A stretch of DNA of 64,000 nucleotides, taken from the NCBI GenBank assembly GCA_043805415.1, contig JAZDHZ010000003.1, positions 28,366-92,365 of the forward strand. Reading direction: 5' to 3'. Of the stretch, positions 6,067 through 57,355 are shown in pieces; position 1 is the stretch's first letter, and each line of letters starts with the position of its first letter. Below the pieces are notes generated by a model that had not been told where the DNA came from, did no database searches, and saw only the letters and a program-made list of their open reading frames with translations. A program made the position numbers and the translations under genes. This stretch comes from Candidatus Omnitrophota bacterium. Lineage in GTDB: Bacteria; Omnitrophota; Gorgyraeia; B26-G9.

Positions 6067-6120
6067 AAAGAAAAAGCAATAGCGATTTTCATGATTAGGA
6101 TTGTCAGATAATTTATTCAA

Positions 6121-6168
6121 AAATAACCCTATGCGATTATTTTAACAATCGGATAGGGTTATTTCTTT
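6121..6168 (+). terminator. Hairpin (11-bp perfect stem AATAACCCTAT/ATAGGGTTATT, 19-nt loop) followed by a T-rich tract
   Basis: Read directly from the sequence downstream of the lipoprotein gene. Confidence 0.45.
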
Positions 6169-6251: not shown

Positions 6252-7415
6252 ATGAAAAACACCTTCTATATTAAAACTTTCGGCTGTCAGATGAACACAC
6301 GCGATTCCGAACTGGTTGCCGGTTTATTGCTTAAAAAAGGCTATAAGCTTATTGAGCAGGAAGATGCTGCTGATATTGTTCTTGTGAATACCTGTAGTGT
6401 CAGAAAACACGCGGAAAACAGAGTCTGGTCGGAAATCGGAAAACTGAAAAAACGCAAAAAGCGCACAGGTAAGCCGCTTATCGGGCTTATCGGCTGCATG
6501 GCGCAAGCCTGGGGGCAGGAAGTATTTGCTAAAGCGCCTTTGGTGGACTTAGTTGTTGGGCCGAACAATATAAGCGCGATTCCCGGATTGCTGGCGGATT
6601 TGAAATCAGGTTTTGGCCAAGCGATTGCTGTGGGCAAAGATCAAAGAGATGCTTTTGTGTATAATACTGAATATATCAGCGGAAAATCGCATTGTAATGT
6701 TAATATCATGGAAGGGTGTAATAATTTTTGTTCATACTGTATTGTTCCCTATGTAAGAGGCAGGGAGAGAAGCCGGGACGCGGAAGATATTATGAATGAG
6801 ATCAAATCATTGGTAAGCAAAGGGATAAAAGAGATTACGCTGCTCGGGCAGAACGTCAACTCTTACAAGTCACAAGACACAAGTCACAAGACACAAGGAA
6901 AAGATAAAAGCGTTTCTTTTATTGACTTGCTGGACCAGGTAAATGCCGTTGAGGGATTGGAGAAGTTTGATTTTGTGACGTCGCATCCCAAGGATGCTTC
7001 GATAGAGTTGTTTCAGTCTATGGCGGCATTGGAAAAGTGTCGGAAATTTTTACATTTGCCGATACAGTCAGGCTCTGATAGAATATTAAAGAAAATGAAT
7101 CGGGGTTATACAGTAGCGCATTATGGACAGCTGGCTAAGGCGGCAAAAGAACTTATTCCTGAATTAAGGCTAGGTACAGATATTATGGTTGGGTTTCCCA
7201 CGGAAAGCGAAAAGGATTTTGAGGATACCTACAAGCTTATGCAGGAAATTCAATTTGACGCTGCTTATATTTTTAAGTATTCGCCTAGGCCGCACACAAA
7301 AGCGGCGGAACTTAAAGATGATATAAGCGAAGAGGTTAAGAAATCTAGGCATAAGATTTTGCTTGATTATCAAAGACAATTACACAAGAAAAAAGATCAA
7401 CGGAATAATTTATGA
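6252..7415 (+). CDS. miaB: Radical-SAM methylthiotransferase of the MiaB family, ending before any TRAM domain, with a repeat-derived in-frame insertion
   Basis: N-terminal FYIKTFGCQMNTRDSE (MTTase domain). CNNFCSYCIVPYVRGRERSR (CxxxCxxC radical-SAM). The C-terminus ends right after the radical-SAM domain at 387 aa, whereas E. coli MiaB is ~474 aa. A tRNA prenyltransferase (miaA) lies two genes downstream. Confidence 0.7.
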   Translation: MKNTFYIKTFGCQMNTRDSELVAGLLLKKGYKLIEQEDAADIVLVNTCSVRKHAENRVWSEIGKLKKRKKRTGKPLIGLIGCMAQAWGQEVFAKAPLVDLVVGPNNISAIPGLLADLKSGFGQAIAVGKDQRDAFVYNTEYISGKSHCNVNIMEGCNNFCSYCIVPYVRGRERSRDAEDIMNEIKSLVSKGIKEITLLGQNVNSYKSQDTSHKTQGKDKSVSFIDLLDQVNAVEGLEKFDFVTSHPKDASIELFQSMAALEKCRKFLHLPIQSGSDRILKKMNRGYTVAHYGQLAKAAKELIPELRLGTDIMVGFPTESEKDFEDTYKLMQEIQFDAAYIFKYSPRPHTKAAELKDDISEEVKKSRHKILLDYQRQLHKKKDQRNNL

Positions 7416-8170
7416 AAAAAACACTGAGCTTAATTGTTGTGCTTATTTGTCTGGGGATTTGTTCCAGAGCATATTCCTATGGGGCGGCACTGGATGAAGC
7501 CGTAAAATTAATGCTTAAAAATGATTATTACGCGGCTTTAGATGAATGCCATCGGTTGGAGCGGATTCTTTCCGGTTATGACAAATCAGAGCTTTTATAT
7601 ATTGAAGGAGAGTGCTTTTCCCTGCTTGAAGATTATGACCAGGCGCGTGAGGTTTTTAAACAGGGGCTTAAAAATTCTAAAGGAGAGCTTTCAACCAAAA
7701 TATATCTAGGCATAGCGGATAGCTATTTTATGCAGCATGGATATGATAAAGCGATAAGTATTTATAAACAGCTGCTTGAGAAAAACAACCCTGATTACGA
7801 AGCGGGATTATTGTTTAAATTAGGAAAAGCTTATCAAAAAAATAGTAAATGGACCCAATCAAAGTATTATTTTGATATGCTCAAGCAAAAATACCCGCAG
7901 AGTTTTGAGCTGGCAATTGTTGAAAAATCTTCAGTTGGCGGAAATTTCTTTACCATCCAAGTCGGCTGTTTTTCAAATAAAGAAAACGCGGAAAAGCTGC
8001 GAGATAATTTATTGGCAAAAGATTATGATGTTTATGTTACCCCTTTTCAGTCTAATGGCAGTGAATTGTACAGAGTAAGAGTCGGTGAATTTGTTTCTCT
8101 TCTTGCTGCGGAGCATCAAGAACTTGAGTTAAAAAATGTTGAACATTTACCAACCCATATATTCCCTTAA
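7412..8170 (+). CDS. Lipoprotein with TPR-like repeats and C-terminal SPOR (septal peptidoglycan-binding) domain
   Basis: Signal and Cys lipobox (LGICS). TPR-like helical repeats. The C-terminal FFTIQVGCFSNKENAEKLRDNLLAKDYDVYVTPF...YRVRVGEF matches the SPOR fold signature. Confidence 0.5.
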   Translation: MKKTLSLIVVLICLGICSRAYSYGAALDEAVKLMLKNDYYAALDECHRLERILSGYDKSELLYIEGECFSLLEDYDQAREVFKQGLKNSKGELSTKIYLGIADSYFMQHGYDKAISIYKQLLEKNNPDYEAGLLFKLGKAYQKNSKWTQSKYYFDMLKQKYPQSFELAIVEKSSVGGNFFTIQVGCFSNKENAEKLRDNLLAKDYDVYVTPFQSNGSELYRVRVGEFVSLLAAEHQELELKNVEHLPTHIFP

Positions 8171-8252
8171 AACAGCGTTTAGCCCTTTGACTTCGCTCAG
8201 GATAAACGTTTAGAGATTAGCGTTCAGGAAAAAATAAAGAAATGAGTTTAAA

Positions 8253-23225: not shown

Positions 23226-23445
23226 TATATTCTTTTGTTTTCTGATAAAATGTGAGAGACTCTACAGTTATAATCTATTTATTTACAGATTGTTCTGCCT
23301 TAGGAATCTTATTTTGAGGTAAACTGCCTATTTGGCGACATATTGATGTAAGCTATTTATTTGCTAAATGTTATGCATTTAAATCGTTTACATCTATTTT
23401 TTTAGGTAAAATTATCTGATTAGAGGGATGCCGTCTAGAAATCTA

Positions 23446-23474
23446 TTGACGGTTAGTTGTTTTTGTTTTATAAT
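23446..23474 (+). promoter_or_regulatory. Sigma70 promoter upstream of the arg operon (TTGACG-17-TATAAT)
   Basis: Hexamers at 23446-23451 and 23469-23474 in a long AT-rich leader. Confidence 0.45.
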
Positions 23475-23601
23475 AAATTTCTATTTAAAAATTCTAAGTC
23501 TTGAGTGATAAACTCTTAGGTTAAATTTCAGATTAGCTTATTAGAAATATTTTGTTAGGTTATTTAGAAAAATTATTAAATCAAGGAGAAATAATATAAA
23601 A

Positions 23602-27983: not shown

Positions 27984-28904
27984 ATGAATAAAGATTTAAT
28001 TTCAGGGTTTGATTTATCTGAGCAGGATATTAATAAAATATTTTCGCTTACATCAAAACTGAAAAAAAACAAAATAGACAGCTGTCTTAAAAATCAGACT
28101 ATTGGACTTGTTTTTCAAAAACCATCAGTGCGGACGCGAGTTTCTTTTGAAGTCGGCGCTCGTCAGCTGGGAGCAAATTGTTTATACCTTGCGCCGCAGG
28201 ATATTGAGCTGGGGAGCCGGGAGCCGTTAAAAGATGTAGCTAGAGTTCTTGGCCGCTACTTAGATGGAATTATTGCCCGGACTTTTTCCCATGACCATGT
28301 TATTGAACTGGCAAAGTACGCGGATATCCCGGTAATAAACGGTTTAAGCGATTTGTATCATCCTGCCCAGGCTTTAGCTGATATTTATACTGTATCTGAA
28401 CATACAACTAAGTTTAAAGGCGTGAAGCTTGTTTATGTCGGGGATGGAAATAATGTGGTTAACTCGCTTATGGCCATTTGCGCAAAAGTAGGCATGGATT
28501 TTATTGTGTCGACACCCAAAGGCTATGAGCCGAACAAGCTGATTTGGGCTAATGCTCTTAAAATTGCTAAGCAAAACAAAGCAAAGCTTGTGCACTGCTA
28601 TGATCCGGAAGAGGCAGTAAAAGGGGCTGATTTTATTTATAGTGATGTTTGGACTTCAATGGGACAGGAAAAAGAAGCAGTCAAGAGGATCAAGGCATTT
28701 AAGAATTATCAAATAAACGCAGAGCTGCTTAAACACGCAGGCAAGCAATATAAGATTATGCATTGCATGCCGATACACCGTGGGCAGGAAATGACGGATG
28801 AAGTTGTTGAATCCAAGCAATCGATTATCTTTGATCAGGCAAAAAATAGAATGCATGTGCAAAAAGCAGTGATGGCGCTACTTTTGCAAAGCAAAAGTAA
28901 ATGA
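27984..28904 (+). CDS. argF: Ornithine carbamoyltransferase
   Basis: STRTRVSFE carbamoyl-phosphate-binding motif and HCMP ornithine-binding motif. Confidence 0.85.
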   Translation: MNKDLISGFDLSEQDINKIFSLTSKLKKNKIDSCLKNQTIGLVFQKPSVRTRVSFEVGARQLGANCLYLAPQDIELGSREPLKDVARVLGRYLDGIIARTFSHDHVIELAKYADIPVINGLSDLYHPAQALADIYTVSEHTTKFKGVKLVYVGDGNNVVNSLMAICAKVGMDFIVSTPKGYEPNKLIWANALKIAKQNKAKLVHCYDPEEAVKGADFIYSDVWTSMGQEKEAVKRIKAFKNYQINAELLKHAGKQYKIMHCMPIHRGQEMTDEVVESKQSIIFDQAKNRMHVQKAVMALLLQSKSK

Positions 28905-29001
28905 CAAATGACAAATGCCAAATGACAAATAACAAACAGAAGTCAAATTAAAGCAGGGTAAATAAAAAGCAGAAAAAGAAAATCTTTGAGGGTTTAAGAG
29001 T

Positions 29002-29035
29002 TATCTTCTGAAAGAAGATAGTCGATTTATTTGGA
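29002..29035 (+). terminator. Perfect hairpin TATCTTC-TGAAA-GAAGATA followed by a T-rich tract in the argF-argG spacer
   Basis: Read directly. May act as an intra-operon attenuator/terminator. Confidence 0.35.
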
Positions 29036-29081
29036 TTTTGTCATTTGGATTTTGGAATTTCTTAAATAAGGAGCAAACGAA

Positions 29082-30257
29082 ATGAAGAAGAAGGTTGTGT
29101 TGGCTTATTCCGGGGGATTAGATACTTCCTGCTGTGTGAAATGGCTTCAGGATAAAGGTTTTGAAGTTATTTGCTTTAGCGCTAATCTTGGCAGCGAGTT
29201 TTCACCAGCAGAGCTTAAAAGGAAAGCTAAAGCCAGCGGAATTAAGACAATATATGTGGAAGATCTGCAGCAGGAATTTGCTGCTGATTATATTCTACCG
29301 GCTTTAAAGGCAAATGCTGTATATGAATCAAAATATGTTTTATCAACAGCTCTTGGGCGGCCTTTAATCGCTAAATATTTAGTGGATATTGCCCACAAGG
29401 AAAAAGCTGAATATGTGGCGCATGGCTGTACCGGCAAAGGAAATGACCAGGTAAGAATTGATACAACAGTAAAAATTTTAGACCCAAAACTTAAAATAAT
29501 CGCGCCGGTAAGAGAGTGGGATCTAACATCACGCGAATCAGAGATTGCCTATGCCAAAAAAAACAAAATAGAAATCTCCGCAACCAAGGAAAAAATTTAC
29601 AGCATTGATCAGAATATCTGGGGCATCAGTATTGAAGGCGGGCTGATGGAAGACTTAAATAATGCTCCTGATGAAAGTGCCTATGTATTAACTAAAGGAA
29701 TAGATAAAACGCCCAATAAACCGGATTATGTTGAAATTGAATTTGATAAAGGAACACCGATTAAGCTCAATGGCAAGAAAATGAGTTTCTTAAGCATGAT
29801 TGAGGATTTAAACAAGGTTGCGGGTAATCATGGTATTGGCAGAACTGATTTAATCGAAGACCGGACTGTGGGGATCAAATCCCGTGAGGTTTATGAAGCC
29901 CCGGCAGCCTGGGTATTGCTGCAAGCTCATCGCGAGCTGGAAAGTGTGGTCTTGGATAAAGACACAATTAGTTTTAAAGAAATAGTTGGTTTGCGTTATT
30001 CGCAGCTTGCTTATCAGGGCTTATGGTTTTCCCGGCTGCGCAAAAGTTTAGCTGCTTTTGTGGATTTAACCCAGGAAAAAGTCACGGGTAGTGTAAAACT
30101 AAAACTTTACAAAGCGAATATTACGGTTGCGCAAAGGAATTCAAAGCATTCACTTTACAGAAAAGAATTAGCAACCTATGGCGAGGAAGATCAGTTTAAC
30201 CGCGAGGATGCTAAAGGTTTTATTGAAATATTCTCTTTGCCGTATCGAGAAAGATAA
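29082..30257 (+). CDS. argG: Argininosuccinate synthase
   Basis: VLAYSGGLDTS PP-loop ATP pyrophosphatase motif. Length 391 aa. Confidence 0.9.
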   Translation: MKKKVVLAYSGGLDTSCCVKWLQDKGFEVICFSANLGSEFSPAELKRKAKASGIKTIYVEDLQQEFAADYILPALKANAVYESKYVLSTALGRPLIAKYLVDIAHKEKAEYVAHGCTGKGNDQVRIDTTVKILDPKLKIIAPVREWDLTSRESEIAYAKKNKIEISATKEKIYSIDQNIWGISIEGGLMEDLNNAPDESAYVLTKGIDKTPNKPDYVEIEFDKGTPIKLNGKKMSFLSMIEDLNKVAGNHGIGRTDLIEDRTVGIKSREVYEAPAAWVLLQAHRELESVVLDKDTISFKEIVGLRYSQLAYQGLWFSRLRKSLAAFVDLTQEKVTGSVKLKLYKANITVAQRNSKHSLYRKELATYGEEDQFNREDAKGFIEIFSLPYRER

Positions 30258-30606
30258 AGCAGCGTATAGCGATTAGCGTTTAGTGTATAGAAAAGCAGAC
30301 ACAAAGTCACAAGGACACCAGGTCACCAGGTCACAAGGACGGAAAAGCAGTTATGAATTACGAGTTATGAATGAAAAGCAAAGAGCTAAAACAGTTCATA
30401 AAGTTTATAAAGTAAAAATATCGATAGGCAAAAATTCTCTTTGAGCGGCGCTTTCGAACGTAATTTTGACATGGAAGTCAAAATAGTGAGAACGCGCGGC
30501 TGAGTCTGCACGATGCAGGCTCAGGCTTAGCGAAAAGACGTGTTTTTGCCGGTAAGCGCACGCAATACGCACGACGCAATACTTTAACGAATAAAAGGAA
30601 ATAATT

Positions 30607-31977
30607 ATGGCTAAAAAATTATGGGGCGGCAGATTTAAAAAGAACATTGATCGCGATTTTGAGGAGTTTTCAAAATCTATTCAGTATGATTACAAACTGG
30701 CCAGAATTGATGTGTTTCATTCAATAATTCATACTTTAGCTCTAGGCGGCAGCAAACTTTTAACCAAATCCGAGACTAAAAAAATCTTAGATGCTTTAAA
30801 TTCGATCATCAAGGATATTGACACTAAAAAATTCACGCCAGATATGAGCTCCGAAGATATTCATACGGATATTCATAATCGTTTGGAAAAAAAGATCGGG
30901 TTGCTTGCGGATAAAGTGCATACCCTGCGTTCTCGCAATGATCAGATTGTGTTTAATGAAAAATTCTATTGTTTAGATGAAGCTTTGAATATTCAGGGAT
31001 TGCTTAAAAGCTTAATTGACAGCTGTGTTGGTTTGATGAGAAAGTATGATAAACAGCCATTTATCGGCTATACCCATACTCAAAGGGCACAGGTGATATT
31101 ATTTAGCGATTATATGGTTGCTTTCGCGCATATGTTTGCCAGGGATTTTAAACGGATAAAACAGTTTTATGAATCAGTAGTGCCGTATATCGGGGCCGGA
31201 GCTTTGGCTGGGACATCATTGCATAAAGAAGAGTATTTTAAAGCAATTGATGATTTTTTAACATACAAACAACCTGGTTCGGGAAAAGTTAAATCTGTGG
31301 AAAATTCAATTGACAATGTTAGCGACCGGGATTTTATTATGGAATTTCTTGGGGGAATTTCGATTATCCAAATGCATTTATCGCGATTGTGCGAAGATTT
31401 TATTTTATATTCCACTCAGGAATTTGATTATCTTGATCTGCCTGAAGAATTTTGCACTGGCAGCAGTTTAATGCCGCATAAAAAGAATCCGGATTTTCTC
31501 GAGCTTGTTCGCGGATATACCGGACGAATTTATGGCAACCAGATATCTCTGATGACAACGATGAAGGGGCTTCCGATGTCCTATAATCGGGATATGCAGC
31601 TGGATAAAGAACCTTTATTTTCTTCAGTAGATACAATTAAAGATGAGCTGAAAATAATGGCAAAATTCATTAAGGGCATAAGTCTAAAAAAGAAAGTCAT
31701 TGAAAAAGCTTTAAAGGACGAGCGGCTTTACGCGACCGAGCTTGCTGAATTTATGGTATTTAAAGGAGTCGCGTTTAAGGATGCCCATGATGCAGTGGGT
31801 AGAATTATCCGCTATGCGGAAGATAATTCTATCGAGATTAAACATATGTCAGATGAATTGCTTAAATCTTTTCACGCTAAACTTAGTCAAAAAGATATTC
31901 AGAAAGTAATGCATCCTGAACACGCGGTAAGTTCTAAAAAATCTGTCAACAGAAAGGTGCCGAGAGTTAATGCATGA
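30607..31977 (+). CDS. argH: Argininosuccinate lyase
   Basis: Fumarate-lyase family (GSSLMPHKKNPD signature). Length 456 aa. Confidence 0.85.
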   Translation: MAKKLWGGRFKKNIDRDFEEFSKSIQYDYKLARIDVFHSIIHTLALGGSKLLTKSETKKILDALNSIIKDIDTKKFTPDMSSEDIHTDIHNRLEKKIGLLADKVHTLRSRNDQIVFNEKFYCLDEALNIQGLLKSLIDSCVGLMRKYDKQPFIGYTHTQRAQVILFSDYMVAFAHMFARDFKRIKQFYESVVPYIGAGALAGTSLHKEEYFKAIDDFLTYKQPGSGKVKSVENSIDNVSDRDFIMEFLGGISIIQMHLSRLCEDFILYSTQEFDYLDLPEEFCTGSSLMPHKKNPDFLELVRGYTGRIYGNQISLMTTMKGLPMSYNRDMQLDKEPLFSSVDTIKDELKIMAKFIKGISLKKKVIEKALKDERLYATELAEFMVFKGVAFKDAHDAVGRIIRYAEDNSIEIKHMSDELLKSFHAKLSQKDIQKVMHPEHAVSSKKSVNRKVPRVNA

Positions 31978-35791: not shown

Positions 35792-35878
35792 ACAATAAAC
35801 CAGTTGCCGGAGATTTTTTAAAAGTGAAATATATGTCTCTGGTGACTGGTAACTTTTTAATGAAAGGATCTGTGTGTA

Positions 35879-40708: not shown

Positions 40709-40936
40709 TTGTGTTTGACGATAGGAGTAAAGGAGATAATTGTGGATTGCAAAAATTTCTCAAAGAATATGAAGATTTGCAATTGTAGTTACAATCCTTG
40801 TTCACGCAAAGGCATGTGTTGCGAATGTCTGCACTATCATCGTCAAATGGGGCAATTGCCCGCGTGTTTTTTTAAAGAAGACGACGAGCGAACATACGAC
40901 CGTTCTATAGAGAGATTCATTCGATCAAGACAATGA
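40709..40936 (+). CDS. Small Cys-rich hypothetical protein (CxC..C..CCxC motif; alternative start 40769)
   Basis: [24 protein letters not shown]: seven Cys in 20 residues. No homolog recognised. Confidence 0.35.
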
Positions 40937-40979
40937 TGAAGGTCGTGTATAAATTTAAAGCGAGGAGGGAGGTGAAATT

Positions 40980-41213
40980 ATGGCAGATAAGGTAGCAAAA
41001 GCTGGTATCGTAAGAGAAAAAGGATATCTCTACTATCTAGACAAACAGGGTGATGTTTCACGTGCAAAAATGGCTAGAGGTGGGAAAAAAGGCGGAAAGC
41101 CTGGCAAAGTTACTAAATTAGGAATAACGAGAGAGGAAGGTTTTCTCTATTTTATTGATAAAGAGGGAGACGTTTCTCGCGCTAAAATGGCAAGACGCAA
41201 AAAGAAAAAATAA
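40980..41213 (+). CDS. Small basic protein made of two ~33-aa tandem repeats (GIxREKGYLYYLDKQGDVSRAKMAR)
   Basis: Internal duplication visible by eye. Good SD (GGAGGGAGG) upstream. Confidence 0.45.
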   Translation: MADKVAKAGIVREKGYLYYLDKQGDVSRAKMARGGKKGGKPGKVTKLGITREEGFLYFIDKEGDVSRAKMARRKKKK

Positions 41214-41401
41214 TAAAGTGTATATGCTATAAATACTTATTGGCCCCTGTGAAGGTGACTTTACGGGGGCTCAATAGTCATTATAAATAAATAATAAAAA
41301 CGGATAAAATAAAGTATCTTAGCCGGTAGACTAGGATAAAGCTCTACTGATAATAATAGATAGCTTAAAATGATTACAATTTAGAAAAAAGAACATGCTT
41401 T

Positions 41402-43922: not shown

Positions 43923-44306
43923 ATGTCTAGAGAAAATAGTCATTCGGAAAGAAGAACGGATAAGCGTTTTGATGTTCAATTGCCAATTAAAATTGGCGGA
44001 TCTGATTTTGAGATTGCTACTGATACAAAGAATATAAGTTCAACGGGAATTTATTGTCAAGTCGATCGGTTTCTACCCGTCATGACTAGGCTGTGCTTAA
44101 AAATGTCAATACCTTTAATCGAAAATAATCGAAAAGTAGAAAAAAATATTGATTGTAAAGCCGTGGTTGTAAGAATCAGGCCAGAATCTAGGCTGGAACA
44201 TATAAATAGTTATCAGCTTGGTCTTTTCTTTACAGATATTAAAAGTCAAGACAGAGAATTAATCAGTCGATATCTGCAGCATGCTTTTTTTGCTGGTAAC
44301 AATTAA
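43923..44306 (+). CDS. PilZ-domain protein (paralog 3 of 3, short)
   Basis: RRTDKR followed by NISSTG. Lacks the C-terminal extension of paralogs 1 and 2. Confidence 0.55.
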   Translation: MSRENSHSERRTDKRFDVQLPIKIGGSDFEIATDTKNISSTGIYCQVDRFLPVMTRLCLKMSIPLIENNRKVEKNIDCKAVVVRIRPESRLEHINSYQLGLFFTDIKSQDRELISRYLQHAFFAGNN

Positions 44307-44436
44307 AAACAGCATATAGCGATTAGCGGTTAGGAAAAGCAGAAGACAGAGAACAGAAAATGGAAAAAGCAAAAAAAGACTTGGTTGATAGTCAATGGTT
44401 TGGCAAAAATTCTCTAAAAAAATAGGGAGAAGAATT

Positions 44437-44913
44437 ATGGCAAATGCACTGATCGCTTATTATTCCCGTACTGGAAATACAAAAAAAATGGCTGAGATTA
44501 TCAGTGAAATTTTTAAAAAAGAGGGGCTAATAGTTGATATTAAAAGTGTTGAAGATACGGAAGCTGATGAATTAATAAATTATGATGTTTTAGTTTTTGG
44601 TTCTCCGACTTATTATGGTTCAATGGCTTATCAGCTTAAGCAATTAATCGATGCAAGCGTTAAGCTGCATGGCAAGCTGCAAGGTAAAATAGGGGCAGCT
44701 TTCTCTAGTGCCGGGAATGTAGCCGGCGGTAATGAAACAACAATTTTAGGAATTATCAATTCTTTTTTAATTCACGGGATGATTGTGCAAGGGGATTCAC
44801 GCGGTGATCATTATGGGCCGGTATCATTGGGGGCTCCTGATGCGCGGGCGATAAAAGAATGTCAGCGATTTGCTAAGAGGATTGCTGGTTTAGCTAAAAA
44901 GCTCTTTGATTAA
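44437..44913 (+). CDS. Flavodoxin-like fold FMN-dependent protein (WrbA/flavodoxin family)
   Basis: ALIAYYSRTGNTKKMAE and VLVFGSPTYYGS are flavodoxin phosphate-loop and FMN-binding signatures. Confidence 0.6.
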   Translation: MANALIAYYSRTGNTKKMAEIISEIFKKEGLIVDIKSVEDTEADELINYDVLVFGSPTYYGSMAYQLKQLIDASVKLHGKLQGKIGAAFSSAGNVAGGNETTILGIINSFLIHGMIVQGDSRGDHYGPVSLGAPDARAIKECQRFAKRIAGLAKKLFD

Positions 44914-45031
44914 TTAAATTGAGAAAACAGAAAACCGATGACAGAAAACAGAAAAAATAGTTAGATTATTTCTGAAAGTTTTAATCCTTAGCCTGTTGTC
45001 TGTGTTCTGACTTCTGTATTCTGGTTTTAGC

Positions 45032-45107
45032 GCGCCTGTGGCTCAACGGATAGAGCATTTGGCTTCGGACCAAAGGGTTGGAGGTTCGAGTCCTCCCAGG
45101 CGCACCA
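45032..45107 (+). tRNA. tRNA-Arg (anticodon TCG), CCA encoded
   Basis: Manually folded cloverleaf: acceptor GCGCCTG/CAGGCGC, D stem GCTC/GAGC, anticodon stem TTTGG/CCAAA with loop CTTCGGA, T arm GGAGG-TTCGAGT-CCTCC, then ACCA. Confidence 0.6.
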
Positions 45108-45127
45108 AAATAAGCGAAATTGAGCTA

Positions 45128-45156
45128 TTGACCTGCGGTATATTTTTTGTTATAAT
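45128..45156 (+). promoter_or_regulatory. Sigma70 promoter (TTGACC-17-TATAAT) upstream of tRNA-Lys/Leu/Gly
   Basis: Hexamers at 45128-45133 and 45151-45156. Confidence 0.5.
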
Positions 45157-45183
45157 TTATTTTCTTAGGTAAATATATATTTC

Positions 45184-45259
45184 GGGCCGTTAGCTCAGCT
45201 GGTAGAGCAGGACACTCTTAATGTCAAGGTCGAAGGTTCGAGCCCTTCACGGCCCACCA
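45184..45259 (+). tRNA. tRNA-Lys (anticodon CTT), CCA encoded
   Basis: GGGCCGT acceptor, anticodon loop CTCTTAA, T arm GAAGG-TTCGAGC-CCTTC, ACGGCCC-A-CCA. Confidence 0.7.
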
Positions 45260-45365
45260 ATATTTTGTTTTTAAGATAAAAAGTTAAGGTGATTCAAGAA
45301 TTAATGAATTCAGTGCGGATTTATCCAGAATAGTCTTATGTGTATGTGAACATTGAAAAGTATTT

Positions 45366-45449
45366 GCGGACGTGGCGGAATTGGCATACGCGTACGGCTT
45401 AGGACCGTATCCTTCTGGGATGAGAGTTCAAGTCTCTCCGTCCGCACCA
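45366..45449 (+). tRNA. tRNA-Leu (anticodon TAG), long variable arm, CCA encoded
   Basis: GCGGACG acceptor, anticodon loop CTTAGGA, 14-nt variable arm, T arm GAGAG-TTCAAGT-CTCTC. Confidence 0.7.
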
Positions 45450-45468
45450 TAAAAGTTAAGATTTAAAA

Positions 45469-45543
45469 GCGGTGGTAATTCAGTGGTAGAATGTCTCCTT
45501 GCCAAGGAGAATGTCGTGGGTTCGAGCCCCATCCACCGCTCCA
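45469..45543 (+). tRNA. tRNA-Gly (anticodon GCC), CCA encoded
   Basis: GCGGTGG acceptor, anticodon stem TCTCC/GGAGA with loop TTGCCAA, T loop TTCGAGC, CCACCGC-T-CCA. Confidence 0.7.
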
Positions 45544-56348: not shown

Positions 56349-57049
56349 AAAAAGTTAAAACCACCTTACCGACAAAGACACATAAGATTCTCATGAGTAA
56401 TAAAAACTCCTGTTCTGCCAGAATCGATATTGCCCGTGAAAAACGTCGAGGATTTCCGGAAGTTATTTATTGCCCGGGTAAAAAAATTAATCAAATTAAG
56501 AAGATAGCCCAGTGCATTCTTGAACACAATGATACTTTGCTGCTTACCAGAGCCAATGATCAGATATATAAAGCAATAAAAACAATAAGCAAAAAAGTTG
56601 TTTATAATAAAGAGGCAAATCTTATTTATGTGGCCAATAATAAGAGAATTGTAAAAAAAGGGCTTATTCTTGTGATCAGCGCGGGAACAAGTGATATCCC
56701 TGTGGCAGAAGAAGCAGCGGTTACCGCGGAGCTTATGAATAATCGGGTTGAGCGGCTTTATGATGTTGGCGTTGCCGGAATCCATCGTTTGCTTGATGAA
56801 TCAGATATTCTAAAAAAAGCCGATGTGCTTGTTGTTGTGGCTGGTATGGAAGGGGCATTGGCCAGTGTTGTTAGCGGTATGGTGGATAAGCCAGTTATTG
56901 GGGTACCAACAAGCGTTGGATACGGAGCTAGTTTTCAAGGTATAGCGCCACTTTTGACAATGCTTAATTCGTGTTCTCCAGGAGTAAGTGTTGTAAACAT
57001 TGATAATGGTTTTGGCGCGGGATATCTTGCCGGATTGATTAATAAATAG
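56339..57049 (+). CDS. larB: PurE-like nickel-pincer cofactor biosynthesis protein LarB
   Basis: LVISAGTSDIPVAEEA is a PurE-class mutase/carboxylase motif in a ~236-aa protein. Lies directly upstream of a LarC homolog. Confidence 0.6.
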   Translation: MGLKKVKTTLPTKTHKILMSNKNSCSARIDIAREKRRGFPEVIYCPGKKINQIKKIAQCILEHNDTLLLTRANDQIYKAIKTISKKVVYNKEANLIYVANNKRIVKKGLILVISAGTSDIPVAEEAAVTAELMNNRVERLYDVGVAGIHRLLDESDILKKADVLVVVAGMEGALASVVSGMVDKPVIGVPTSVGYGASFQGIAPLLTMLNSCSPGVSVVNIDNGFGAGYLAGLINK

Positions 57050-57355
57050 CGTATAGCGCTTGGCTGATAGCTGATGGCTCATAGCTCATGGCTCATGGTC
57101 AAAAGCAGAGAACCAATTACTAATTACTAAACTCTAAATAAACCCAAATGACTAAAGTCAAAAGCACAAAAAGAAATATAAAAAAATTTAATTTTTATGC
57201 TGAGTTTATAATTTTGGATTTATTTTGGATTTAGAGTTTATGGTTTAGAGTTTTTTAAAAAACTATCGACTATTAGCTATTGACCATTGACCTTGCGAAT
57301 AAACGCAATACGCGATACTCAATACGCAATACAGAAGACTAAACGCAGGGGTTTT

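Follow-up and report, generated by a model that had tools for sequence, protein, structure and literature searches.

Degenerate heptamer arrays with nested miniature repeats in the intercistronic spacers of a Candidatus Omnitrophota bacterium

The DNA analyzed here is a stretch of 64,000 nt from a Candidatus Omnitrophota bacterium (the window, to which coordinates refer unless another locus is named), in which the argG-argH spacer and several other intercistronic spacers carry short tandem repeats. A first-pass annotation had described these as a family of intergenic elements with five copies, at 6067, 8172, 30259, 44308, and 57047. The gene pairs flanking the five sites are unrelated to each other and have housekeeping roles: argG with argH; genes for a PilZ-domain protein and a flavodoxin; genes for an AIRC-domain protein and a nickel-insertion protein; genes for a SPOR/TPR protein and an isopentenyl pyrophosphate (IPP) transferase; and genes for a peptidoglycan-binding-domain protein and a radical-SAM UPF0004 protein. 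We take the AIRC-domain gene to be LarB, the nickel-insertion gene LarC, the IPP transferase MiaA, and the radical-SAM UPF0004 gene MiaB-like. The annotated proximity to stop codons was confirmed, since all listed sites lie 0-9 nt from one; at 57047 the TAG stop of the upstream AIRC-domain gene doubles as the first repeat unit.

The repeat family is real. The 18-mer AGCRTATAGCGATTAGCG matches exactly at 30261-30278 and 44311-44328 and with 3 mismatches at 8205-8222 and 57048-57065, which makes four matches in the window against 0.07 expected, a number that none of 100 shuffled sequences reached. This 18-mer spans about 2.6 units of a tandemly repeated, degenerate heptamer, (T)AGCG-N-W, in which the two bases after (T)AGCG are only loosely constrained (mostly T/G/A, then A/T). 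Not all five annotated copies stand equally: those at 30259, 44308, and 57047 are solid, that at 8172 is degenerate, and that at 6067-6099 is doubtful, with a single TAGCG unit. A periodicity scan found seven intergenic period-7 tracts (1.32/kb) versus one coding tract (0.017/kb), while the other periods from 4 to 12 gave at most one intergenic tract each and shuffled spacers gave 0.16 period-7 tracts. Period 7 is a specific signature of this window's spacers. Tandem Repeats Finder (TRF) independently called period-7 arrays at 28899, 29029, 44334, 44922, 57061, 57230, and 57303; the 30261 array is too degenerate for TRF and was picked up by the periodicity scan (tract 30259-30294). Arrays have 3-5 units, at most 22, and are located at stop codons or shortly past them. 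Downstream tandem repeats, which the annotation had regarded as specific to each element, were likewise called by TRF at 30300-30338 (period 8), 44334-44360, and 57061-57098 (both period 7). Further along the spacers the heptamer vocabularies are TGACAAA, AGAAAAC, GTTATGA, ACTAATT, and ACGCAAT. Since period-7 arrays occur in these other vocabularies, the supposedly element-specific repeats are the same phenomenon as the AGCG arrays.

The argG-argH spacer is composed of the following features, all on the + strand.

30261-30290, +: heptamer array AGCGTAT AGCGATT AGCGTTT AGTGTAT AG (period-7 tract, 18-mer match)
30291-30298, +: A-rich linker AAAAGCAG, which recurs at 30343-30350, 28965-28972, 44335-44342, and 57101-57108
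30300-30338, +: period-8 array, unit CACAAGGT, 4.9 copies (TRF)
30351-30373, +: heptamer module GTTATGA ATTACGA GTTATGA, common to the same spacer of the relative L387
30427-30550, +: 124-nt dispersed repeat, element A, nested within the heptamer hairpin
30560-30582, +: heptamer array ACGCAAT ACGCACG ACGCAAT AC (sequence, fold)

The first array begins 4 nt past the argG stop codon (TAA 30255-30257) and forms the 5' outer arm of the spacer hairpin, pairing with 30549-30585 in the minimum free energy (MFE) fold. The outer stem is weak because its 3' partner, the array at 30560-30582, is of a non-cognate vocabulary; this arm ends about 25 nt upstream of the argH start codon, and the relative L389 carries an ACGCAAT array at the same position. 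For the period-8 array, no complementary arm was found within the spacer; its vocabulary is also present in L060, L403, and L397. The annotation had placed the end of the element near AAAAGCAGA, but AAAAGCAR (AAAAGCAGA) proved to be a linker that recurs between successive arrays. Every listed recurrence of AAAAGCAG sits between modules, 23 of its 26 sites in the window are on the + strand, and in this lineage it is enriched 4.5-fold within 100 nt of heptamer tracts and also punctuates related loci. The linkers are A-rich and predicted to be single-stranded in the folds of 30250-30606 and 57040-57345.

The remaining sites and two sister hairpins comprise the following.

44311-44333, +: heptamer array AGCATAT AGCGATT AGCGGTT AG, beginning 5 nt past the stop codon of the PilZ-domain gene
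44334-44415, +: remainder of the 44311 composite, with AAAAGCAG, a GAAAACA array, GTTGATAGTCAATGGTTT, and the first 14 nt of element A
57047-57098, +: array TAGCGTA TAGCGCT TGGCTGA TAGCTGA TGGCTCA TAGCTCA TGGCTCA TGG
57109-57343, +: inner modules and 3' hairpin half (inverted repeats I1-I5, TRF, fold)
8174-8233, +: degenerate relative, AGCGTTT AGCC... then AACGTTT AGAGATT AGCGTTC AGG, 4 nt past a stop codon
28899-29060, +: sister hairpin of another vocabulary in the argF-argG spacer (TRF, inverted repeats, fold)
44922-45029, +: sister hairpin downstream of the flavodoxin gene, with an AGAAAAC array (44922-44955) and its complement (44993-45029)

In the 44311 composite, 44402-44415 is GGCAAAAATTCTCT, that is, only the first 14 nt of element A, a truncated copy lacking its partner arm, and the module order of 44307-44415 is identical to that in L394/L106, L403/L019, and L077. 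In the 57047 spacer, ACTAATT/CTCTAAA arrays (57109-57165) have their complements at 57201-57253, followed by a CTATCGA/CTATTGA arm (57262-57292) and an ACGCAAT array of 4.3 units (57303-57332). The arms of the argF-argG hairpin are (TGACAAA), 5.4 units, and (ATTTGGA/TTTGTCA), 4.6 units, and the TGA stop codon of argF lies inside the first unit. Four tRNA genes (Arg-TCG, Lys-CTT, Leu-TAG, and Gly-GCC) occupy 45032-45543, directly 3' of the AGAAAAC hairpin.

Long imperfect hairpins had also been annotated, and these were borne out at two of the five sites, where the arrays provide the 5' arm. The argG-argH spacer (30250-30606) folds with a z-score of -5.4 and the spacer upstream of the nickel-insertion (LarC-type) gene (57040-57345) with a z-score of -4.0, and in neither case was any of 100 shuffles as stable. 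The sister hairpins of the argF-argG spacer (28896-29070, z -5.0) and downstream of flavodoxin (44914-45031, z -2.9) were each matched by none of 200 shuffles. No significant fold was obtained at the 44308 copy (44304-44436, z -0.6, 51 of 200 shuffles as stable) or the 8172 copy (8168-8252, z +1.1, 174 of 200), and the sole structure at the 6067-6099 copy is an unrelated terminator-like stem at about 6122-6162. According to an inverted-repeat search, the arms in the folding spacers are complementary heptamer arrays. Where a TAGCG array is followed by an array with the complementary core, as in 34 simple hairpins examined, the stems of the MFE folds are serial 5-bp TAGCG/CGCTA helices with 2x2 internal loops between them. 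Any unit can thus pair with any unit of the opposite arm, and because pairing is register-independent, the hairpin survives the gain or loss of units. The arms were also considered as true inverted duplicates. This was rejected, as the complementarity of the variable dinucleotides between arms was not above chance (0.657 vs. 0.664 for a null with shuffled units, in these 34 hairpins).

Element A, the repeat nested within the argG-argH hairpin, has the ends GGCAAAAA...TTTTTGCC, and the pairing of GGCAAAAA with TTTTTGCC closes a Y-shaped fold. Its copies in Omnitrophota metagenome-assembled genomes (MAGs) and loci are 94-99% identical. A metagenome scan with an exact 33-mer of element A gave 23 loci, 22 of which come from one metagenome that is also the source of L387, and 22 distinct full copies aligned with a mean column identity of 95%. 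Among the paired columns, 8 vary by transitions that give G-U on the shown strand and none by transitions that give A-C, and two columns show compensatory changes; in the L397 copy one stem has been turned into a perfect palindrome. As far as the alignment indicates, the substitutions permit pairing on just one of the strands (8 columns vs. 0), as would be expected of an RNA. Element A has terminal inverted repeats, lies in both orientations relative to neighboring genes (the opposite one in L389 at the window's site), is present or absent at orthologous sites, and occurs in at least 20 near-identical copies in related genomes. The left flank of the copies read is most often a GCTNATAG/GTCGATAG heptamer array. 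No repeated flank surrounds the 22 copies, and the divergence between orthologous sites with and without the element is too great for an alignment. No Rfam match for element A was found. In this Omnitrophota lineage the TAGCG array is the opening module of a mosaic with the order stop codon, AAA(A/G)CAGCG, (TAGCG-NN)n, AAAAGCAR linker, other heptamer arrays, and element A; the succession of stop codon, TAGCG array, linker, other arrays, and element A recurs in the window, L077, L403/L019, and L394/L106. By these features element A behaves like a MITE (miniature inverted-repeat transposable element), and it may represent a MITE or else a small RNA in multiple copies; we know of no parent transposon.

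Other small repeats were observed as well. Element B, a second repeat of about 110 nt, is found in L390 (7207-7465 and 8642-8845), L026 (5842-5939), and L417 (523-744), with the hairpins TCCGAAAATATCTGCTAGG...CAGATATTTCGGA and GGCTGACTTGAC...GTAAGTCAGGC. In some copies it takes the place of an arm of element A, and in relatives it also occupies the argF-argG and argG-argH spacers; it was not noticed in the window spacers read, although no search of the window for it was made. Within the radical-SAM UPF0004 (MiaB-like) gene of the window, 6865-6897 is an in-frame 33-nt tandem repeat, ACAAGTCACAAGAC, of 2.4 copies, encoding ...KSQDTSHKTQG..., and its vocabulary matches spacer arrays of related genomes (e.g., the ACACAAG arrays of L408). 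It appears that words of the spacer repeats have found their way into a coding loop there. At 40980-41300 the window has a small open reading frame (ORF) that is internally duplicated (...GIVREKGYLYYLDKQGDVSRAKMARGGKKG... and ...GITREEGFLYFIDKEGDVSRAKMARRKKK). Ahead of it, at about 40742-40950, is another small ORF, rich in Cys, and the two fall within an apparent 736-nt spacer.

The spacers were also compared with the orthologous spacers of relatives. The window ArgG is 92-93% identical to Omnitrophota proteins, and nine syntenic relatives with 81-93% ArgG identity have the common gene order rplM-rpsI-argCJBDFGH-lysA-dapFAB... (L388 and L392 share their ArgG protein with L387 and L391, respectively, and their spacer lengths were taken from gene tables). 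Their argG-argH spacers, from eight distinct relatives, are listed below with the ArgG identity.

Window: 349 nt; a TAGCG array, further arrays, element A, and an ACGCAAT array
L387/L388 (92%): 140 nt; GTTATGA/ATTACGA module plus further repeats
L389 (93%): 251 nt; a single TAGCG unit, inverted element A, the window's 3' arm
L390 (90%): 204 nt; a single TAGCG unit followed by 32 nt of element A and a further, unrelated repeat (about 110 nt)
L391/L392 (86%): 1 nt (TAATATG); empty
L416 (85%): 64 nt; GCTNATA array
L417 (83%): 16 nt; empty
L418 (81%): 135 nt; 10-nt tandem repeat
L419 (81%): 28 nt; empty

As the length and content of this spacer differ among close relatives, it is labile repetitive DNA and not a conserved regulatory site. 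The presence/absence comparison that the annotation had called for thus yielded variable spacers (1-251 nt in relatives vs. 349 nt in the window), and its alternative of a shared 3'-UTR regulatory or processing site is contradicted, as the orthologous spacers are empty (1, 16, and 28 nt) or hold unrelated repeats. The argF-argG spacer is likewise variable and measures 177, 18, 115, 259, and 116 nt across the first five distinct genomes. L389 carries a shorter form of its hairpin, with an array of about 3 units by our count compared with 5 in the window, and the 18-nt spacer of L387 is empty. Unlike the repeat-filled spacers, the 350-nt rpsI-argC leader, which lies in a 376-nt spacer of the window (23226-23601), is conserved in all these loci. 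This leader holds TCTAGAAATCTATTGACGG...TATAAT, a TTGACG...TATAAT promoter-like core, and is likely the promoter and leader of the arg operon. Elsewhere in the window, the spacer between dapB and an aminotransferase gene (35792-35878) has a hairpin without heptamer repeats, ACCAGTTGCCGGAGA...TCTCTGGTGACTGGT, the mismatches of which are G-U pairs on the + strand only; at this site relatives have other heptamer hairpins (L390, L391) or overlapping genes (L387).

Copies beyond the window are numerous. The 18-mer was scanned through 185,579 species genomes (596 Gb, for which about 35 chance matches are expected by our calculation) and gave 112 loci with 115 arrays, the window's own contig not being among them. 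The annotation had reasoned that the shared words would be coincidental if no further copies existed in the genome and neither covariation nor structure supported them. This reading, chance similarity of 11- to 18-mers in AT-rich DNA, can draw on the expected 35 matches and on 26 of the 115 arrays that are bare 3-unit matches, 8 of them inside ORFs. It is refuted by the other 89 arrays, which have at least 4 units and in 80 cases lie outside ORFs, as well as by the 18-mer count and the period-7 enrichment in the window, so that we consider its probability negligible. The annotation's proposal that the family is specific to this genome also failed, because the exact 18-mer lies in arrays from at least 10 non-cyanobacterial phyla. 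Tallied by record title, Omnitrophota account for about 36 loci, Planctomycetota for about 17, and Patescibacteria/Candidate Phyla Radiation (CPR) for about 11, including a closed Campbellbacteria genome; further hosts are Desulfobacterota, Nitrospirota, Nitrospinota, Acidobacteriota, Proteobacteria, and one Pedobacter isolate. In addition, a pattern of four TAGCGNN units was found in 63 viral contigs.

The layout of these loci is stereotyped, namely (AGCGNNT)n, a loop, and (ANNCGCT)n. The complementary arm lies downstream rather than upstream in a ratio of 42:1 at the cellular 18-mer loci and 8:0 in viral contigs. Among arrays that follow a co-oriented gene, 32 of 45 start -16 to +14 nt from its stop codon, and 52 of 62 arrays are located between co-directional genes. 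TAG at 7-nt spacing stops all three frames, and in 12 cases an ORF ends within the array. Stop triplets in heptamer families show a modest general excess (61% vs. 53%). A rule that stop codons face outward was unsupported in 6 unseeded hairpins. A universal rule that the purine-rich arm comes first, which at first seemed significant (31 of 39), is not claimed here, as it split by source into 1:7 in cellular and 25:4 in viral loci.

TAGCG was also considered as a special, possibly protein-recognized word. It was rejected because control cores of the same composition were as frequent or more so: viral 4-unit arrays numbered 36 loci for GCGAT, at least 119 for GTCGA, and 57 for TGCAG, compared with 63 for TAGCG. 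The control cores GCGAT, GTCGA, and TGCAG likewise have a preferred polarity (2:0, 10:0, and 17:2, respectively). TAGCG thus has no special standing among the cores. The same counts bear on the idea that the arrays are periodic DNA or RNA binding sites, in which a multimeric protein would read one 5-nt core per subunit. A conserved 5-nt core with a free 2-nt spacer fits such repeated recognition of a short word; however, there are dozens of unrelated heptamer vocabularies in one genome (349 families in 3.2 Mb of loci) and no positional conservation, and this explanation seems very improbable to us.

Alternatively, the hairpins might be functional intercistronic RNA structures, acting as partial terminators, 3'-exonuclease barriers, RNase processing sites, or in translational coupling. 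They would then set relative expression within operons, as REP and BIME sequences do in E. coli. The strong folds (z -4 to -5.4), the co-directional gene contexts, the A-rich and predicted single-stranded AAAAGCAG linkers, and the filling of the spacer from the stop codon to just 5' of the next ribosome-binding site agree with such a role. Against this, sense and antisense strands folded equally well in 18 TAGCG hairpins between co-directional genes (MFE tie 9:9, Wilcoxon p 0.91), and two of the five window copies are without any structure. No canonical terminators or promoters were found in the spacers 28905-29081, 30258-30606, 44307-45031, and 57050-57355, none of which has the compact G+C-rich stem followed by a U tract of Rho-independent terminators. 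Rfam 15 returned only the 4 tRNAs for the whole window at the gathering threshold, and for the region 30240-30620 the best matches at E up to 10 had E values of at least 2.2. Moreover, at the orthologous argG-argH site L391, L417, and L419 have empty spacers, and the spacers of L387, L416, and L418 are of unrelated content. Taken together, an RNA function of this kind appears unlikely.

The fixed topology also raises the possibility that the TAGCG hairpin is a miniature mobile element similar to REP sequences and their REPIN hairpins, of which a dedicated enzyme would copy a unit of fixed polarity into spacers, with horizontal spread among phyla. Besides the polarity of 42:1 and 8:0, this would explain the 18-mer in at least 10 phyla, with genomes of isolates and a closed CPR genome among its sources, the pattern in viral contigs, the presence or absence at orthologous spacers, and a palindrome that reaches into the flanks (AAACAGCG...CGCTGTTT). 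However, the arrays have no defined ends and range from 3 to 22 units, and they lack the conserved GTAG/CGTC tag of REPs (PMC3733652). Because the arms are not reverse complements at the variable positions, the copies are not replicas of a master. The control cores are equally abundant, and no transposase was linked to the arrays in this analysis of 8-kb to 20-kb loci, which was not genome-wide. We regard this explanation as rather unlikely, if somewhat less so than an RNA function.

We consider it probable that these spacers hold slippage-driven heptamer arrays with nested miniature repeats that are tolerated between cistrons. Arrays would lengthen and shorten through replication slippage by one or two units per step, other small repeats would insert into them or rearrange within them, and the resulting structure would persist as short intercistronic spacers tolerate it. 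The spacers would then consist of selfish or neutral repetitive DNA, of the heptanucleotide simple-sequence type together with miniature mobile elements, and any effect on the transcript, such as an intercistronic stem-loop, would be a by-product and not a conserved function. To judge from the sequences compared, the spacers behave as dispensable, fast-evolving repetitive DNA. L055 and L098, which are orthologous or duplicated sites, differ in length by 14 nt. In the MAG JAUHWS01, L036 and L094 have identical flanks around an (AGCGTAT AGCGATT) array of 10 vs. 22 units, which reflects either a duplicated locus or strain-level length heterogeneity captured in the assembly.

Several observations weigh against this explanation. 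The fixed polarity of the TAGCG hairpins is not predicted by independent slippage in two arrays, and gives a hint of either propagation of the whole hairpin or a polar constraint. The exact identity of 18- to 28-nt arrays across phyla exceeds the expectation of pure drift; by our reading, L041 and L051 have identical arrays although their flanks are only about 80% identical. A TAGCG hairpin also occupies the argG-argH spacer of L008, although this Omnitrophota genome is distant (41-58% protein identity). Furthermore, we infer slippage from differences in length, and there may be an effect at the transcript level, though nothing observed demands one. As polarity and cross-phylum identity are left unexplained, the mobile-hairpin alternative is kept alive. 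A bolder form of it would see in the TAGCG hairpins an unrecognized self-propagating class of 'zipper' hairpins with core-only pairing and the fixed polarity 5'-(TAGCGNN)n...(NNCGCTA)n-3'. Horizontal transfer would spread these across uncultivated phyla from groundwater and sediment (Omnitrophota, Planctomycetota, CPR, Nitrospirota, and Desulfobacterota) and their viruses, and they would act as landing pads for structured miniature elements such as element A. We think this unlikely.

Heptamer arrays with nested repeats account for the filling of unusually long spacers in the otherwise compact operons of Omnitrophota. In annotation, such spacers can be handled as labile mosaics of repeats instead of being put forward as riboswitch or small RNA candidates. 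Assemblies of these uncultivated genomes are likely to be broken at the arrays and at element A, which probably also distinguish strains. Pairing through the core alone keeps the hairpin intact at any number of units, and the near-absolute polarity of TAGCG across phyla is notable; should a dedicated enzyme or a transcription-linked constraint lie behind it, this would amount to a new rule in the organization of simple-sequence DNA in bacteria.

The annotation had likened the family to repetitive extragenic palindromic (REP) sequences, bacterial interspersed mosaic elements (BIMEs), or MITEs, and each comparison holds in part. Similar to REP, BIME, and REPIN sequences, the repeats are intergenic and palindromic, lie mostly 3' of genes, form mosaics with short motifs, and vary among strains (PMC3733652, PMC3116915). 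The spacers show the mosaic arrangement with other conserved short motifs that is characteristic of BIMEs. Unlike these systems, the arrays are without a 20-40 bp palindromic unit and a GTAG or CGTC tag, and their arms pair via a 5-nt core only. They begin with AGCG(T/G/A)(A/T)T, have a 7-nt unit in an unbounded array of variable length, and contain GTAG only where the variable bases are NG.

The likeness to MITEs applies to element A, which has defined ends, terminal inverted repeats, and near-identical dispersed copies, and not to the AGCG arrays, which have no ends, range from 3 to 22 units, and differ unit by unit between copies. ERIC (enterobacterial repetitive intergenic consensus) and Correia elements are types of MITE. 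Element A resembles them in its length of about 125 nt, terminal inverted repeats, strong fold, and near-identical intergenic copies in both orientations, but shows no visible target-site duplication in 22 copies. A nested arrangement was reportedly described in Nostoc by Elhai and colleagues in 2008, with small dispersed repeats of 21-27 nt inside heptamer arrays. As in the window, such very small repeats are said to lie inside tandem heptamer tracts and inside one another, and to form intergenic hairpins; the phylum and the sequences are different, and the nested element A, at 124 nt, is much longer.

The closest resemblance is to tandem heptamers. Short tandemly repeated repetitive (STRR) sequences were reportedly first described by Mazel and colleagues in 1990. 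Heptanucleotides also form a class of 'long simple sequence repeats' (LSSRs) (Mrazek et al., 2007, as summarized in PMC4679880), and TAACTGA direct repeats have been reported in intergenic regions of marine Beggiatoaceae, cyanobacteria, and Bacteroidetes (MacGregor, 2015, PMC4679880). The latter share with the AGCG arrays a tandem intergenic heptamer word that contains stop codons and a distribution over scattered lineages. However, they are nearly exact, located just 5' of start codons, and hardly ever inverted, with one indirect repeat among 170 sets (PMC4679880), whereas the AGCG arrays follow stop codons, are degenerate, and are paired with an inverted partner. The arrays have the head-to-tail 7-nt unit, mostly intergenic location, and whole-unit changes in copy number of heptanucleotide tandem repeats, and, as in STRRs and LSSRs, many vocabularies occur per genome and slippage is the proposed origin. 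They differ from the STRRs of heterocystous cyanobacteria in that the units are degenerate at two positions, that arrays with complementary cores are paired into hairpins of fixed polarity, and that the hosts are Omnitrophota, Planctomycetota, CPR, Nitrospirota, Desulfobacterota, and others. They are not STRRs in the strict sense of a heterocystous cyanobacterial host, given the Omnitrophota-like ArgG and the non-cyanobacterial matches. Overall, the AGCG array resembles a variant of the STRR/heptanucleotide-LSSR kind that is combined with a BIME-like mosaic.

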